Shown one piece after another: positions 3,793 through 37,614 of a DNA stretch of 45,691 nucleotides. Position numbers and translations under genes: made by a program. The DNA is from a virus (lineage: Duplodnaviria > Heunggongvirae > Uroviricota > Caudoviricetes). Below the pieces are notes generated by a model, which made no database searches, was not told the origin of the DNA, and saw only the letters and a list, made by a program, of their open reading frames with translations. Position 1 is the stretch's first letter, and each line of letters starts with the position of its first letter. The stretch is taken from positions 1 through 45,691 of the IMG/VR virus record IMGVR_UViG_2531839130_000007. One strand, written 5' to 3'.

Positions 3793-4136
3793 AAACCATA
3801 AGGTTACTGTATCCGTCAGTGGAGTGGGTTCAGTCCTTTGCAGACGAACGCTGCGGACGTGCAGGCGTTGTGTATCAGGCGTCGAATTTTGATTTTATTG
3901 GCAGTCATGAAAGCACGTTCTACGAGCTGGATGGTGAGTGGTATCACGAGATAACGATGAACGCAATTAAACGCGGTGGACAACGAGGCGTGTATTTACG
4001 GGCTAATAAAGAGCGTGCCGCAGTGCACAAATTTAATCAGTATCGCTGCATCAGATTCCTGAACAAGCGAGCAAGGAAGCGGCTAAATACTAAACTATTC
4101 AGGGCTCAGCCATACCCCAAAAGCAGTTCGGATTAG
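3717..4136 (+). pseudogene. ORF fused downstream of the truncated invertase; possibly the C-terminal remnant of a Mom-like gene
   Basis: Overlaps the pin 3' end in another frame with no convincing start. Mom assignment rests on Mu gene order (G segment, gin, com, mom) and a weak recollection of the family; not verified. Confidence 0.25.
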
Positions 4137-13484: not shown

Positions 13485-13775
13485 CCTGGCCGGAGGCATT
13501 CACAACGACAGGAATTGCAATGGCGTCGGCACTTGTTGTGTATTCGGTTTGCAGATGGGGATAAAAACGGTTTGCGGGGAAATCTTAGTTAAGTAGAATG
13601 ACTGCGGGTGCTTGAGGCTATCTGTCTCAGGCATGAACACCAAAAGGCAGATAGAGAAAAGCCCCAGTTAACATTACGCGTCCTGCAAGACGCTTAACAT
13701 TAATCTGAGGCCCAATCTATGTCTCACAAATGTAGGTTAGCCTCTTACGTGCCGAAAGGCAAGGAGAAGCAGGCT

Positions 13776-13931
13776 ATGAAGCAGCAAAAGGCGATGTTAA
13801 TCGCCCTTATCGTCATCTGTTTAACCGTCATAGTGACGGCACTGGTAACGAGGAAAGACCTCTGCGAGGTACGAATCCGAACCGGCCAGACGGAGGTCGC
13901 TGTCTTCACAGCTTACGAACCTGAGGAGTAA
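13776..13931 (+). CDS. hokD: Hok/Gef-family type I toxin (HokD/RelF-like)
   Basis: MKQQKAMLIALIVICLTVIVTALVTRKDLCEVRIRTGQTEVAVFTAYEPEE: single TM helix plus conserved Cys and RTG...VAAF-like tail; AGGAGAAG Shine-Dalgarno; structured leader and terminator. Confidence 0.85.
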   Translation: MKQQKAMLIALIVICLTVIVTALVTRKDLCEVRIRTGQTEVAVFTAYEPEE

Positions 13932-16243: not shown

Positions 16244-16319
<76 letters not shown>

Positions 16320-16322
16320 TAT

Positions 16323-16397
<75 letters not shown>

Positions 16398-17114: not shown

Positions 17115-17137
17115 GGGCCGCTGGTGGCCCTTTTTTT
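17115..17137. terminator. Intrinsic terminator immediately upstream of the lysis cassette
   Basis: Stem gggcc/ggccc with loop gctggt, then T7; 20 nt before the holin-like start. Confidence 0.6.
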
Positions 17138-17156
17138 ATTTACAGGAGAAAAAAGT

Positions 17157-17549
17157 ATGTCTGAACCCTTATCCGGTTCCGGCACGGCTGCGGCGCTCGG
17201 CGGGGCGACGGTGTACGGGCTGTTTACCGGGACGGATTTCGGGATTGTGTTTGGTGCGTTCGCCGGGGCGTTATTTGTGGCAACGATGCCGCAGGCGCTT
17301 TCAGCCTGGCGTGTGGCGGCGCATTTTCTGGTGTCGTTCATTATCGGCGTGCTGGGGGCAGAGGTTCTGGCGTCCTGGCTGGTAAAGCATACAGGGTTTG
17401 ACGGTGCACCTGTCGACGCACTGTGTGCAGTGCTGGTGTCAGTGGTGTCGGTGAAGATTCTGTCGTTCATCCACCAGCAGGATATTGCATCACTGGTGTC
17501 CGGTGTGTTCTCCCGCCTGCGGGGCGGAGGAGGCGGCAATGTTAAGTAA
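17157..17549 (+). CDS. Putative holin (multi-pass small membrane protein)
   Basis: Start at ATG 17157 (AGGAGAAAAAAGT upstream); ~130 aa with 3-4 hydrophobic helices; first gene of the lysis cassette. Confidence 0.45.
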   Translation: MSEPLSGSGTAAALGGATVYGLFTGTDFGIVFGAFAGALFVATMPQALSAWRVAAHFLVSFIIGVLGAEVLASWLVKHTGFDGAPVDALCAVLVSVVSVKILSFIHQQDIASLVSGVFSRLRGGGGGNVK

Positions 17550-17814
17550 CCTTCCCGGATTGCTGAATGTGGCGTTATGCACGGTTATCGTGCTGACGCT
17601 CTTTTTTTATCGTCGTCGTGACTCCAGACACAAACCGCTGATGTCATGGCTGGCCTGGCTGCTGATGCTGCTGTATGCCTTTACGCCCCTCAGCTATCTG
17701 TGTGGTCGCCCGTTAGCGGCGAACTGGCTGGCGGTGGGGCTTAATCTGCTGTTCTGCGTGCTGGTGATACGTGCACGCGGGAACGTTTCAAAAATCCTTT
17801 CATTCCGGAGGTGA
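17539..17814 (+). CDS. Second small membrane protein of the lysis cassette (antiholin or accessory)
   Basis: Start at ATG 17539 (GGAGG upstream), overlapping the holin stop; 91 aa with two hydrophobic segments. Confidence 0.4.
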   Translation: MLSNLPGLLNVALCTVIVLTLFFYRRRDSRHKPLMSWLAWLLMLLYAFTPLSYLCGRPLAANWLAVGLNLLFCVLVIRARGNVSKILSFRR

Positions 17815-17816
17815 GC

Positions 17817-18194
17817 ATGTCGGGTAAATTCAGATTCAGTCGTCGCAGTGAAAAAAATCTGGGGGGCGTCAAACCACAGCTGGTTGCTGTCGTTCGCCGT
17901 GCCCTTGAGCTGACGGAGGTTGATTTCGGTATTACGGAAGGCCTGCGCAGCAAGTATCGCCAGAAACAGCTGGTTGCAGAAGGTAAGAGCCAGACCATGA
18001 ACAGCCGCCACCTGACCGGTGATGCGGTGGATGTTGTGGCCTACGTTGGCAGCCAGGTGTCATGGGACTGGCCTCTGTACGAGAAAATCGCACAGGCATT
18101 TAAGCAGGCTGCCGCAGAGCTGGGAGTCGCCATCGAATGGGGCGGGGACTGGAAAACGCTGAAGGACGGGCCGCACTTCCAATTGAAACGCTGA
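17817..18194 (+). CDS. Endolysin, peptidase M15 family (zinc L-alanyl-D-glutamate peptidase type)
   Basis: Motifs SRHLTGDAVD, WGGDW and DGPHFQL fit the M15 H-x6-D...H zinc site; ATG 17817 with GGAGG upstream. Confidence 0.7.
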   Translation: MSGKFRFSRRSEKNLGGVKPQLVAVVRRALELTEVDFGITEGLRSKYRQKQLVAEGKSQTMNSRHLTGDAVDVVAYVGSQVSWDWPLYEKIAQAFKQAAAELGVAIEWGGDWKTLKDGPHFQLKR

Positions 18195-18208
18195 TAGCCG
18201 GGTGAGTT

Positions 18209-18391
18209 ATGAGTCGAAAGCACTGGACACACAGAACGCCGCGAACTGCGGCGAAATGGGCACTGGTAGCGATACTGGTGCCTTTTTTATTGGTGGGATG
18301 CGTCAGCCTGGATAAGGCGCGCCAGCTTTTCGATACGGCTTCTCAGGTCTGTGAAATTGTCGACGGTGTTCGGCAGTGCCTGCAGAACTGA
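18209..18391 (+). CDS. Small lipoprotein (outer-membrane spanin-like lysis component?)
   Basis: 60 aa with lipobox-like FLLVGC after a hydrophobic stretch; directly follows the endolysin. Confidence 0.4.
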   Translation: MSRKHWTHRTPRTAAKWALVAILVPFLLVGCVSLDKARQLFDTASQVCEIVDGVRQCLQN

Positions 18392-18517
18392 TCTCCTGTA
18401 AGGGCAGAATATTTCGCTGAAAAATGAAAGGGCGCCATTGTCCAAGAGGCATGAAATTCTGTTATCTAATCTGGTTGATATATGAATGTGGGGGATGCTC
18501 TTCTCCCCCACTGAAGG

Positions 18518-18730
18518 TTAGCCTACCTTACGGTATGGATACACATTTTTAATGAATTGGTGAAAATACTGGCCTTTTGAACTGGCATTCATAAGACCCT
18601 GATAGATCCTGGATGGAACACCAGAGTATTGATAGATACCTCCATTGTGAAAGGCTATTTCCAGTGTGAGAGTTGCTGAATCATACCCAACTGACTGGAG
18701 ATTTGATGATGAAACATAATTACGAATCAA
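18518..18730 (-). CDS. KTSC-domain protein
   Basis: 70 aa with pattern SSNLQSVGYD...LEIAFHNGGIYQYSGVP..YQGL..ASSKGQYF..IK typical of KTSC domains; TTG start with GAGGA upstream. Confidence 0.5.
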   Translation of the reverse strand: MIRNYVSSSNLQSVGYDSATLTLEIAFHNGGIYQYSGVPSRIYQGLMNASSKGQYFHQFIKNVYPYRKVG

Positions 18731-18885
18731 AACAATATCCTCATATTGCGGGGAAAAGTCCCAATGAAATTATTGATATATTTCGGCGTTATAACTTTGT
18801 CGATGATCATGGTCATCGTCTTGAAATGTGCCAGGACTTCATTGACTTAGTTAATGCGAAATCACAACAACATCAGGATGGTTAG
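18706..18885 (+). CDS. Small hypothetical protein, divergent from and overlapping the KTSC gene start
   Basis: 59 aa from ATG 18706 (GGAG upstream); head-to-head overlap of 25 bp with the KTSC start, so one of the two starts may be wrong. Confidence 0.35.
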   Translation: MMKHNYESKQYPHIAGKSPNEIIDIFRRYNFVDDHGHRLEMCQDFIDLVNAKSQQHQDG

Positions 18886-19151
18886 GCATTACAGCAGCTC
18901 TTCTGTGAGGGGCTGCGATAATGCCAAAGCTCGTCATCGGCACCCGCCGCGCACCCAGCGCACTGGCCGATAGCGGGCTTTTTTATTCATAAAGCGAGGC
19001 TGTATGAGCGAGAAATTTTTATGCGTCCATCCGTAAGGGCAGAGCGAAAGGTGAAGCCGAGCTACGGGCGGCATTGTTTAAGCTTGCCAGAAAAGGGGAT
19101 GCCTTTGCCCTGCGCGAACTACTCAGGGTGGATAAAAATCAGGACTAACTG

Positions 19152-20243
19152 ATGAGCAGACCGGACTGGGGGGCGTTGCAGCAGGAGTATATTGCTGAAT
19201 ACACCCGCTCCGGTATATCTCCGGTGGCATGGTGTGAAGCAAGGGGACTGAATTACGCAACGGCCCGTCGTTACATCAAAAAACCTCCGAAAAATGCGCA
19301 GACAGAAATGCGCAAAACTGCGCAAAAAAGTGCGCAGAAAAAATCTGCGCAGACTGCGCAAAAGCAGAACGGAAAATCTCAGAAAAAAAAGCCAGTATCC
19401 GATGCGTGCCTGAATAAGGGCGACACGGAGGAATTTTCGTTCTGTCCCGATGAATTCGGCATCTCAGAGCAGCAGACGAAATTTGCGATGCTGGTTGCAC
19501 AGGGGAGAAAACTCGTTGAGGCATATCGCCTGGCAGGATACGAGTCAGAGGGGAATGCGGCCTACGTCACTGCCAGCCAGCTCCTAAGAAATCCTAAGGT
19601 TTATCGGGCTATCTCATGGTTCCGCAATCAGTACCAGAAACGCTATACCGCAGACCTAGATTTACTGGTGAGTCAGTTGATGGCCATTGTCCAGGCCGAC
19701 CCCAATCAGTTGGCACAATTTCGCCGTGTTAACTGCCGTTATTGCTGGGGCGAGAATCATCTCTACCAGTGGCGTGATATTGCAGAATTCGATAAGGCAG
19801 CAGCACAGGCCTCCAGAGATGGCAAACCCGAGCCGGAATATGGAGGCCTCGGCTTTGTTGATAACGCCATACCCAATCCGGATTGTCCGAAGTGCTGCGG
19901 TGAGGGAACGGGACAGCTTTATATGGCTGATACCACTCTGCTTGATGGGGATGCGCGACAATTATATGCAGGGGCAAAGCTCGGGAAATTTGGTGTTGAG
20001 ATCCTGCTGGAGGATAAGGCTGCCGCCCGGCGCGAACTTATCAAGCTGATAATGGCGACGAAAGGAGGTTCTGCTAGTGGTGCAACTGACAGTCGCAATG
20101 ATCTGGAGCTTGAAGGACTGAGGCTTCGCAACGAAAAGCTGCGCACTGAGATTGAAAACCTCAAAAAAGGCGTGGGTGGTGAGAATAACGAAATAATTAT
20201 CCACAACTCTCTGCCGATGCCGGGAGTGGATAATGTCGATTGA
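19152..20243 (+). CDS. Terminase small subunit
   Basis: 363 aa immediately upstream of and overlapping the large subunit; HTH-like N-terminus; contains a basic low-complexity stretch encoded by a TGCGCA repeat array. Confidence 0.65.
   Translation: MSRPDWGALQQEYIAEYTRSGISPVAWCEARGLNYATARRYIKKPPKNAQTEMRKTAQKSAQKKSAQTAQKQNGKSQKKKPVSDACLNKGDTEEFSFCPDEFGISEQQTKFAMLVAQGRKLVEAYRLAGYESEGNAAYVTASQLLRNPKVYRAISWFRNQYQKRYTADLDLLVSQLMAIVQADPNQLAQFRRVNCRYCWGENHLYQWRDIAEFDKAAAQASRDGKPEPEYGGLGFVDNAIPNPDCPKCCGEGTGQLYMADTTLLDGDARQLYAGAKLGKFGVEILLEDKAAARRELIKLIMATKGGSASGATDSRNDLELEGLRLRNEKLRTEIENLKKGVGGENNEIIIHNSLPMPGVDNVD
19295..19360. repeat. Array of six TGCGCA hexamers at 9-15 bp spacing inside the terminase small-subunit gene
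   Basis: TGCGCA at 19295, 19309, 19319, 19331, 19346 and 19355; the hexamer is its own reverse complement. Confidence 0.8.
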
Positions 20244-21561
20244 AATCTACCTCCCAAAACCTCATGAGGGGCAAATAGCTGCATGGACGGCGGCAATAGA
20301 GGAACGCTTCCACGCGGTATGCTGTGGTCGTCGCTGGGGTAAAACGGTGATGCTGGTGAACATCGCTACCAGTTTCGCTACGCGGAAATTTGCCGTTCCT
20401 ACCACCGGGCAACTTATCGCGGGTAGGGTGGGGATTTTTACCGCTCAATACCGCCAGTACCAGGAAATCTGGGATGAAATTAGCGCCGTTCTGCAACCGC
20501 TGATCCTCAGTCAGTCAAAAAATGAAAAGCGCATCATTCTCCGTAATGGGGGGCGCATCGACTTTTGGGTAACGGACAATAACAAACTGGCCGGGCGTGG
20601 GCGTAAATATCACGCTGTGCTGATTGATGAGGCCGCATTCACTAAATCGCCGGAAATGCTCGAGGAAATCTGGCCCCGAGCGATACGCCCGACGCTTGTC
20701 GATTACCGCGGCTGTGCGTGGGTATTTTCCACACCAAACGGTATCGACGAGAGCAATTTTTTCTACGCGATATGCCACGATGAATCCCTGGGATTTGTCA
20801 TGCACCATGCGCCAACTTCATCGAATCCGTATATTCCGAAAGAAGAACTGGAGGAAACGGAGAAAAAATCCGATCCGCGCGTCTGGCAGCAGGAATATCT
20901 TGCAGAGTTCGTAGACTGGTCCAAAGACGCGTTACTCGATGTCGATAAGCTGCTGGTGGACGGTCAACCAATTGAGATGCCGCCGTACTGCGACATGATT
21001 TTCGCAGTGATGGATACGGCGCTGAAAGGCGGGACCGAAAATGATGGTACTGGCGTGGTGTATTTCTCTTATGAGTCAACGTATTCGGACGAGCCAAAAC
21101 TGACGATTATTGACTGGGATGTGACGCAAATTAAAGCGTCATTGCTTCCTGAATATATCCCCGGCGTTTATGACAACCTCGAGCGCCTCGCGAAATTATG
21201 CCGTCCGCGTCTGGGCAGTCAGGGAATTTTTATGGAAGACGCCGCGATGGGGGCAATCCTCAACCAGAAGGCGGAAACCGAAGGCTGGGATATGACGCCG
21301 ATTAAATCGACACTAACCAGCAAGGGCAAAGACGAACGGGCGGTGATGGCATCCAGCTACCACTATCAGGGGATGTGCAAAATCGTCCGGGAGGCTTACG
21401 ACAAGACCGTTTCATTCAAACGTACCACCGCAAACCACCTCATTAAACAAATCGCCGGGTTCCACCTGGCAGACAAAGACGCGCATAAACGTGCTGATGA
21501 CCTTTTCGATTGTTATACCTATGGATTGATCATCGCACACGGTAATTACGCGGCGTTGTAA
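20233..21561 (+). CDS. Terminase large subunit
   Basis: 442 aa; Walker A-like CCGRRWGKT, Walker B-like HAVLIDEAA, nuclease-like C-terminal half. Confidence 0.85.
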   Translation: MSIEIYLPKPHEGQIAAWTAAIEERFHAVCCGRRWGKTVMLVNIATSFATRKFAVPTTGQLIAGRVGIFTAQYRQYQEIWDEISAVLQPLILSQSKNEKRIILRNGGRIDFWVTDNNKLAGRGRKYHAVLIDEAAFTKSPEMLEEIWPRAIRPTLVDYRGCAWVFSTPNGIDESNFFYAICHDESLGFVMHHAPTSSNPYIPKEELEETEKKSDPRVWQQEYLAEFVDWSKDALLDVDKLLVDGQPIEMPPYCDMIFAVMDTALKGGTENDGTGVVYFSYESTYSDEPKLTIIDWDVTQIKASLLPEYIPGVYDNLERLAKLCRPRLGSQGIFMEDAAMGAILNQKAETEGWDMTPIKSTLTSKGKDERAVMASSYHYQGMCKIVREAYDKTVSFKRTTANHLIKQIAGFHLADKDAHKRADDLFDCYTYGLIIAHGNYAAL

Positions 21562-37335: not shown

Positions 37336-37614
37336 GATGACCTCTTGTATCTTTTTCGAAGAAGAACCAAAGTGGCGTCGGGAGGTTCGAAACGGCTACA
37401 AGTACCGCGGACTTATTCCCCTTTCGGGTGTTGTATTCGTCGCCCTCCCGACATTGATCGGGGATGTGGTTGCACATGATGCAACCACTGAAAAAATAGG
37501 CATAAAAAATCCAACACTGACGGGGTTGGTTGCGTACCGCTTGTAAGAGGTTTCGACGCCTCAGTTCGGATTGTAGCCAGAGTTGGATGCCGTAGTCAAT
37601 TTAATGATAGTGCA

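Follow-up and report, generated by a model that had tools for sequence, protein, structure and literature searches.

Morons of the Hendrix/Juhala type are autonomous promoter–gene–terminator units that lie between adjacent genes of phage late operons, and one of them, bor of phage lambda, directly follows Rz and has a direction of transcription opposite to that of the late operon. Convergent or antisense control that gives mutual exclusion is provided by the face-to-face promoters of phages 186 and P2, by the excludon, in which divergent genes have transcripts that overlap at their 5′ ends, and by lambda oop/cII and paQ. Further systems of relevance are the anti-CRISPR operons with their associated repressors and BstA which, together with its aba element, combines prophage defence with self-immunity. 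Here we analyse a 45,691-nucleotide (nt) stretch of tailed-phage DNA (IMG/VR record IMGVR_UViG_2531839130_000007, positions 1 to 45,691; this whole stretch is referred to as the window), which is a phiP27/Rac-like lambdoid prophage of Escherichia coli, and we describe in it a mobile cassette of two genes that displays individual features of each of these systems. A minus-strand gene for a KTSC-domain protein of 70 amino acids (aa) and a plus-strand gene for a 59-aa protein, termed below the small gene and the small protein, overlap head to head at their 5′ ends, and together they almost certainly constitute a real, conserved module.

The cassette is best classed as a moron-type accessory unit with an unusual, conserved head-to-head architecture of two genes. 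In common with morons and lambda bor, it is inserted between conserved flanks, at a point between genes that are adjacent in relatives and after the last lysis gene, and its KTSC gene runs antisense to the late operon and has an intrinsic terminator of its own in most lineages, although the T tract of the window copy is weak. However, it differs from morons in containing two genes with overlapping 5′ ends, one sense and one antisense, and in occurring also in early operons of Mu-like and lambdoid phages, while its expression in the lysogen is something that we infer. With the 186/P2 switch and the excludon it shares an obligatory overlap of transcripts: the coding regions themselves overlap by 22–25 nt, which forces the 5′ ends to be antisense, and transcription of one gene crosses the initiation region of the other. 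The overlap in the cassette nevertheless takes in both start codons and both Shine-Dalgarno sites of two protein genes, the unit is accessory cargo rather than the phage's own immunity switch, and interference is here suggested by the geometry. The resemblance to anti-CRISPR operons and BstA would lie in the pairing of a small effector with a nucleic-acid-binding partner, or in a lysogen factor that is neutralised at the lytic switch, but there is no relationship in sequence or fold and the gene orientation differs. In the searchable literature we found no description of the pair or of the small-protein family, nor any citation of '7X8C', a structure of a KTSC-domain protein discussed below.

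Results

Conservation of a head-to-head gene pair

The original prediction for this locus, made from the window alone, was of a minus-strand KTSC gene and a 59-aa plus-strand gene with a 25-bp head-to-head overlap. Open reading frames (ORFs), sequence and annotation agree on this arrangement, and in other RefSeq genomes of E. coli the PGAP pipeline calls the two genes with exactly this 25-nt overlap (WP_071702711.1, WP_001421067.1). Of the two consecutive ATG codons at the beginning of the small gene, that at 18709 is the start kept in homologues, where it is the sole ATG, and that at 18706 is extra. Each gene's Shine-Dalgarno site falls inside the opposite ORF, and only the poorly conserved N-terminal tails of the two proteins are dual-coded.

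Loci related to the cassette (given below as L followed by a number) were gathered by a protein pattern and a degenerate DNA motif. A divergent KTSC gene lies within 400 nt upstream in 75 of 100 distinct small-domain variants and, viewed from the other side, the small gene is present in 54 of the 58 distinct loci (93%) that carry close relatives of the KTSC gene. The 22-nt register of the overlap is identical in all close relatives, which come from Escherichia, Kluyvera, Atlantibacter, Rahnella, Morganella, Photorhabdus, Xenorhabdus and Providencia, and the KTSC gene begins with TTG in 53 of 55 close variants and with GTG in a few. Even where the identity of the small protein has fallen to ~35–40%, an overlap of 22–25 nt is kept (L113, L127, L128, L161, L162, L174–176, L203). 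A few pairs overlap by 2 nt (L110, L111) or lie 17–38 nt apart (L107, L108, L149) and are still divergent neighbours; since pairing persists with a 2-nt overlap or a spacer, physical overlap alone fails to explain the linkage. Conservation of the pair in related prophages, which had been named as a check on the prediction, is therefore confirmed by the retention of the partner in both sets of variants, with a breadth and depth greater than the earlier reading supposed.

Both reading frames are genuine genes

Codons were compared across 59 distinct small-gene and 55 distinct KTSC sequences from the related loci, and the ratio of nonsynonymous to synonymous substitution rates (dN/dS) was estimated by the Nei-Gojobori method for the window copy against four diverged homologues. 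The ratio is 0.10–0.26 for the small gene and 0.06–0.10 for the KTSC gene. As many as 6 synonymous codons are used for an invariant residue, as exemplified by Val31, Arg37 and Leu38 of the small protein (4–6 codons each across homologues) and by Leu23 and Leu46 of the KTSC protein (5 codons each). The dual-coded overlap and the Shine-Dalgarno sites of the two genes are the sole places where synonymous variation is lost, and the CCT codon complementary to the KTSC Shine-Dalgarno sequence is invariant at synonymous sites. The latter sequence is kept in all close loci, and the corresponding site of the small gene is kept as GGAG or GAAGG in homologous loci. Both genes are under purifying selection.

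The prediction had allowed that one of the two ORFs might lack conservation or codon support, in which case a single ordinary accessory gene would be left. Some automatic callers do indeed give only one long ORF (89 aa in P0003, 80 aa in P0005 and 100 aa in PSTNGR2lys, QPB11333), but these long calls are artefacts in which the small ORF is extended through the KTSC antisense frame. Conservation of both frames with dN/dS well below 1, the diversity of synonymous codons at invariant residues, the retention of the Shine-Dalgarno sites of both genes and the membership of the products in two independent protein families leave a spurious ORF hardly conceivable. The same artefact, a small ORF stretched upstream to 80–100 aa with KTSC then uncalled, was observed at positions 4001–4270 of L004 and 3872–4174 of L229, as well as in P0003 and P0005. 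For annotation the lesson is that callers often fuse the small ORF with the KTSC antisense frame and thereby hide one gene.

A mobile cassette in a variable cargo slot

Sequences on either side of the cassette (18150–18461 and 18884–19017) are common to E. coli W, E. coli A17 and phage vB_Apl-pPE4 (blastn, 89–96% identity). Homology to cassette-free relatives ends at 18461/18462 and restarts at 18884 and, because these relatives share the flanks with different sequence between them, the cassette can be delimited as 18462–18883. The same slot holds a 35-aa plus-strand ORF in E. coli W (L105, 1814–2024) and a 98-aa plus-strand ORF in E. coli A17 (L106, 1815–2214), both of which end exactly at the conserved right flank. 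The proposal that the pair is inserted cargo in a common slot is thus upheld by three relatives that share the flanks and carry other cargo or none, and the gene listing agrees with the predicted setting, with the lysis lipoprotein gene on one side and the terminase region on the other (Table 1).

The cassette is found in 17 of 5426 complete E. coli genomes, 15 of which contain the whole 422 bp and 2 a diverged form, and both genes are always annotated. The copy in E. coli H6, at 77% nt identity, resides in an unrelated lambdoid prophage whose holin, lysozyme, DUF2514 spanin and terminase are different, and there too it directly follows the final lysis gene. The only isolated phage with the cassette is Providencia phage PSTNGR2lys, in which it is mis-annotated as one 100-aa ORF.

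Table 1 Coordinates of the cassette, its internal elements and its neighbours in the window
Feature	Position	Strand	Remarks
Holin 1	17124–17549	+	Upstream of cassette
Holin 2	17485–17814	+	Upstream of cassette
M15 endolysin	17811–18194	+	Upstream of cassette
Lipoprotein, 60 aa	18209–18391	+	phrog_7528; last gene before cassette
Mobile two-gene cassette, 422 bp	18462–18883		Variable cargo slot, conserved flanks on both sides
Hairpin, 8 bp, G+C-rich	18488–18511	−	7 nt past KTSC stop; RNA fold; T tract weak here
KTSC-domain gene, 70 aa	18518–18730	−	TTG start
Shine-Dalgarno of small gene, GGAG	18697–18700	+	Inside KTSC codons 11–12
Head-to-head coding overlap	18706–18730		25 nt; 22 nt from ATG 18709
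Small gene, 59 aa (58 aa from ATG 18709)	18706–18885	+	Begins ATGATG
Shine-Dalgarno of KTSC gene, GAGGA	18738–18742	−	7-nt spacing; inside small-gene codons 10–12
Two strong hairpins	18886–18981	+	Right flank, outside cassette; fold −51.1 kcal/mol, z = −4.4
Terminase small subunit	19152–20243	+	Downstream of cassette
Terminase large subunit	20233–21561	+	Downstream of cassette

The right flank displays some features of its own. Its hairpin sequence is also present in prophages with other cargo, and the second hairpin, an A tract, stem and U tract reminiscent of a bidirectional terminator, lies just upstream of the ynaK start. Of ynaK, a ParB/Srx gene, only the first 14 nt remain (19004–19017, with the junction at 19010–19017). 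Relative to the STEC005 prophage ~1.75 kb is gone, comprising the rest of ynaK, a gene for a 310-aa hypothetical protein and most of a 69-aa gene, and 8 nt are common to both endpoints of this deletion.

Constant polarity in three phage contexts

The cassette has been found in three phage contexts, namely the lambdoid late region, the lambdoid early region and the Mu-like early region, and wherever the context was examined in detail, the small gene reads in the sense direction of a lytic operon and KTSC lies antisense just upstream. The nearest long reading frames on either side are on the small-gene strand in 77–79% of loci. In the lambdoid late contexts, past the last lysis gene and ahead of the terminase genes, the small gene has the direction of the lysis and terminase genes, opposite to that of KTSC; the polarity is the same in E. 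coli STEC005, C7 and H6, in Xenorhabdus (a P22-like context) and in Providencia phage PSTNGR2lys.

The lambdoid early region is represented by L113, in which a cI-type S24 repressor gene (−) and a cro-like helix-turn-helix gene (+) precede KTSC (−) and the small gene (+), and the stop of the small gene overlaps the start of an HTH_36 replication gene (ATGA). A comparable order is seen in the Mu-like loci L161, L203, L176 and L152, where an S24 repressor gene (−), a regulatory gap, KTSC (−) and the small gene (+) follow one another and a Mu B-like ATPase gene lies downstream of transposase A. ATGA stop/start overlaps are typical of translational coupling, and such an overlap joins the small gene to a ner-like gene in L161 and L176 and to Mu transposase A in L152, whereas in L203 the small gene has no ATGA coupling to the next gene. 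The gap between repressor and KTSC is ~210 nt in L203; that of L161 would be of similar length only if its repressor starts internally, as the position of the helix-turn-helix domain suggests. The L203 gap, between the S24 repressor gene and the KTSC terminator (1100–1300), also contains three copies of GGTAAAAGTT, which are probably repressor operators.

KTSC genes lacking the small partner can be antisense as well, as in L249, where a lone KTSC gene lies next to a terminase gene. In this locus (2710–2883, −) and in L298 (2710–2886, −) the lone KTSC gene is arranged tail to tail with a conserved ORF of ~57 aa, with a 4-nt 3′ overlap, and this ORF (motif TKELI.EL.KREGV) may be a second recurrent KTSC neighbour. 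Enterococcus phage phiFL2A (GQ478084.1; L231, 3986–4192) contains an unannotated 68-aa KTSC ORF with a GTG start, antisense in the early operon. It lies tail to tail with gp10, is read in the same direction as the genes for the cI repressor and the integrase, and is not accompanied by a homologue of the small partner.

A probable KTSC transcription unit

In most lineages, the Mu-like copies included, a G+C-rich hairpin followed by a T run is positioned 5–10 nt after the KTSC stop. The stems are lineage-specific and non-homologous (AAGCGAGGC...GCCTCGCTTTTTT, AGCGGGGA...TCCCCGCTTTTT and GGCGGAGC...TCCGCCTTTT). Judged by this pattern, the KTSC gene appears to behave as an autonomous transcription unit, and the terminator after it implies a leftward promoter, either inside the small gene or farther upstream of KTSC. 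In 31 of 96 loci a weak recurrent site, RTGNCC and TATAWY separated by a 17-nt spacer, precedes the KTSC start by 57 nt, over the YN...GH codons of the small gene. An Rfam scan detected no known RNA family in the cassette region.

The KTSC protein

The KTSC protein matches Pfam family PF13619 over the full length of the model (97.1 bits against a cut-off of 25, E 4.7e-28; residues 7–64 to model positions 1–58). In the Protein Data Bank (PDB) its matches include 7x8c, a 70-aa 'KTSC domain-containing protein' (phmmer, E 8.5e-21), and 4rgi. Like these two it is a stand-alone domain of ~70 aa; it differs in being phage-encoded, embedded antisense and paired with a specific partner gene. A further match covers residues 628–695 of the HerA ATPase from the Paenibacillus SIR2-HerA defence system (PDB 8wiv). 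The paper on that structure names a 'C-terminal arm domain', in which the KTSC part is not discussed and no ligand is assigned.

A euryarchaeal KTSC member is reported as a single-stranded-DNA-binding protein in the title of Tian et al. 2022 (cited in PMC11237433), a passage of PMC9503650 uses the wording 'DNA-binding KTSC domain', and Aravind and colleagues call KTSC a DNA-binding or RNA-binding domain. By analogy with the family, the KTSC protein of the cassette probably binds nucleic acid. The statement in the original prediction that KTSC function is unknown accordingly no longer holds in full, given the single-stranded-DNA-binding title and the occurrence of the domain at the C terminus of HerA. 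KTSC is widespread, with members in lysyl-tRNA synthetases, in HerA of SIR2-HerA and in phages, jumbo phages among them, yet almost without functional annotation. A consistent partner in a fixed antisense geometry offers a cheap experimental handle on the domain, the two genes being ~200 bp each.

The small protein

The homology search that had been suggested for the 59-aa protein places it in a family: it matches phrog_18255 from end to end (E 5.9e-40; residues 2–58 to profile positions 1–57 of 57), and a profile search of 1.8 billion representative proteins retrieves 119 representatives at E<1e-3. Close relatives are few, forming 7 clusters. The conserved core reads GKSxxEIxxxFxxYNFVDDHGHRLEMCQDFIDLV and carries the invariant stretch YNFVDDHGH.L.MC.DF.DL, and the motif of the wider family is EEI..F..Y.F.D..GH.L..C.DF..LV. 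Pfam has no family that covers the domain in the window protein or in the distant members scanned; a match to HVO_B0008_N was dismissed at 18.9 bits against a cut-off of 27.

Two AlphaFold2 models of the small protein reached predicted local distance difference test (pLDDT) scores of 69.7 and 74.5, and the latter predicts a helix (residues 19–28), a β-hairpin containing YNFVDDHGH and a second helix (43–58). Within this arrangement the invariant His, Cys and Asp residues could bind metal. Foldseek searches against the PDB and BFVD matched only one uncharacterised member of the same family.

Elsewhere the domain stands alone or has a fusion partner, which may be a gp49/gp66 domain, zinc ribbons or SH3-like domains. 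In some loci of Xenorhabdus, Photorhabdus or Morganella type (L009, 1986–2417; L104, L204, L224, L226) KTSC is absent and the small domain forms the C terminus of a ~140-aa protein with a new 85-aa N-terminal part. The opposite strand of L009 contains a 64-aa ORF with two CxxC motifs, which is zinc-ribbon-like.

Discussion

We propose, with a probability of roughly 45%, that the cassette is a moron-like module with reciprocal expression, in which KTSC would be the product made in lysogeny and the small protein its lytic partner or antagonist. A promoter inside the small gene or past it would drive leftward transcription of KTSC and, as long as the lytic operon is silent, only KTSC would be made. 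Once the lytic operon is turned on, RNA polymerase would cross the whole KTSC gene in the antisense direction, and the two mRNAs would be complementary over ~50 nt that cover both Shine-Dalgarno sites and both start codons. Transcriptional interference and the RNA duplex may then switch off KTSC synthesis at a time when the small protein is being made. In the enterobacterial clade nearly all KTSC genes begin with TTG or GTG, weak start codons that would fit a low-level constitutive product. More speculatively, KTSC as a binder of single-stranded nucleic acid might serve the lysogen through phage exclusion or by modulating DNA transactions, and the small protein could be its lytic-phase partner or antagonist. 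The original prediction of mutually exclusive or coupled expression is strengthened by the constant polarity and the KTSC terminator, and remains a deduction from the arrangement of the genes. If expression is indeed reciprocal, read-through transcription alone would tell this compact, portable module whether its carrier phage is in the lysogenic or the lytic state.

Several observations weigh against reciprocal expression of a functional pair. A sigma-70 consensus scan of the minus strand found no promoter for KTSC, a weight-matrix scan over 96 loci scored no better than shuffled sequence, and synonymous sites are constrained only at the overlap and the two Shine-Dalgarno sites, with no other embedded element. 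In the window copy, the hairpin after KTSC (18488–18511) has a poor T tract. The genes can also be separated: in 25 of 100 variants the small domain stands by itself or is joined to other domains; L246, L253 and L295 have an intact KTSC gene beside a small gene that is frameshifted or truncated; and the reverse is seen where an intact small gene accompanies a KTSC gene that has been deleted (L022) or has its start changed from TTG to TTT (L084, L085). Partner specificity looks loose, as 25 pairs have an identical small protein together with KTSC variants that are 30% different. KTSC is moreover common in strictly lytic jumbo phages and is not, as such, intrinsically a lysogeny function.

These separations lend weight to an alternative, that two functionally independent accessory genes are merely co-inherited, with nothing coupled and the overlap a frozen accident. 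Of the 129 phage records with KTSC, 128 lack the small partner, the small domain is also found by itself or behind other N-terminal domains, single genes have decayed in either direction, and dual coding is limited to the poorly conserved N-terminal tails. The variants of the two genes, too, have been shuffled by recombination; a Mantel test between KTSC and small-gene variants gave r = 0.47 with 25 discordant pairs, a result that is uninformative on physical contact. Independent genes do not readily explain, however, why the pair stays joined where the overlap has shrunk to 2 nt or given way to a 17–38 nt spacer, why the cassette entered three operon contexts as a whole and always in the same polarity, or why the partner is kept in 75% of small-domain and 93% (54/58) of close KTSC variants, and we regard this explanation as unlikely. 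Were it correct, the cassette would be just another moron of unknown function.

One explanation that does couple the genes is an effector with its regulator, similar to an anti-CRISPR and its repressor. The small protein would be a lytic effector for anti-defence or host takeover, possibly aimed at KTSC-domain defence proteins such as HerA, and KTSC would act as a nucleic-acid-binding regulator or buffer that keeps the expression or activity of the small protein in check. In its short length, its absence from Pfam and its several architectures the small protein is typical of phage effector domains; KTSC has a nucleic-acid-binding fold and forms the C-terminal domain of the SIR2-HerA ATPase; and the slot in relatives holds cargo of counter-defence type, such as a Lar-like restriction-alleviation gene in Xenorhabdus L009. 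Against this, nothing shows KTSC to be sequence-specific or a repressor, the regulators known from anti-CRISPR loci are helix-turn-helix proteins whose genes share the operon and are not antisense, neither protein matches PADLOC, and no conserved operator-like repeats were seen in the cassette, so that a regulator of this kind seems quite unlikely. A module for toxin and antidote, abortive infection or superinfection exclusion, with a harmful product and its antidote made in opposite phases, is less probable still. Two very small proteins in tight linkage, the potential for antisense RNA over both ribosome-binding sites and the prophage cargo position would suit it, but the genes are divergent whereas type II toxin–antitoxin genes are co-directional, and neither protein has a membrane segment or a nuclease-like motif. 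No match to a toxin–antitoxin or defence system was found for either protein, in PADLOC at E<=1 or in NCBIfam. Obligate co-occurrence, as expected of toxin–antitoxin systems, is also lacking: either gene is found intact without a working partner, and the existence of both single-gene decay states (KTSC only in L246, L253 and L295; small gene only in L022) argues against addiction either way.

The reciprocal module proposed above could be extended to a portable sensor of the dormant or lytic state that employs two antagonistic proteins, with the small protein representing a new family of KTSC inhibitors, although we consider this rather improbable. KTSC made from a silent prophage would bind single-stranded DNA or RNA intermediates and would either exclude superinfecting phages or mask the single-stranded-DNA signals that trigger KTSC-containing ATPases such as HerA. 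Lytic read-through would end its synthesis through convergent transcription and an RNA duplex at both ribosome-binding sites, and the helix/hairpin/helix protein with its His/Cys/Asp core might bind and neutralise a KTSC domain, whether the phage's own or that of the host.

Other features of the window

Outside the cassette and its flanks, the window contains further RNA features. A sok antitoxin RNA (Rfam, 120 bits; 13606–13781, +) indicates a type I toxin–antitoxin locus of hok/sok type in the prophage. Just upstream of the holins lie two phage-borne tRNA genes, for tRNA-Thr (anticodon TGT; 16244–16319, +) and tRNA-Gly (anticodon TCC; 16323–16397, +), and the distal part of the prophage carries a match to sRNA-Xcc1 (Rfam, 78 bits against a gathering score of 53; 37369–37452, −).

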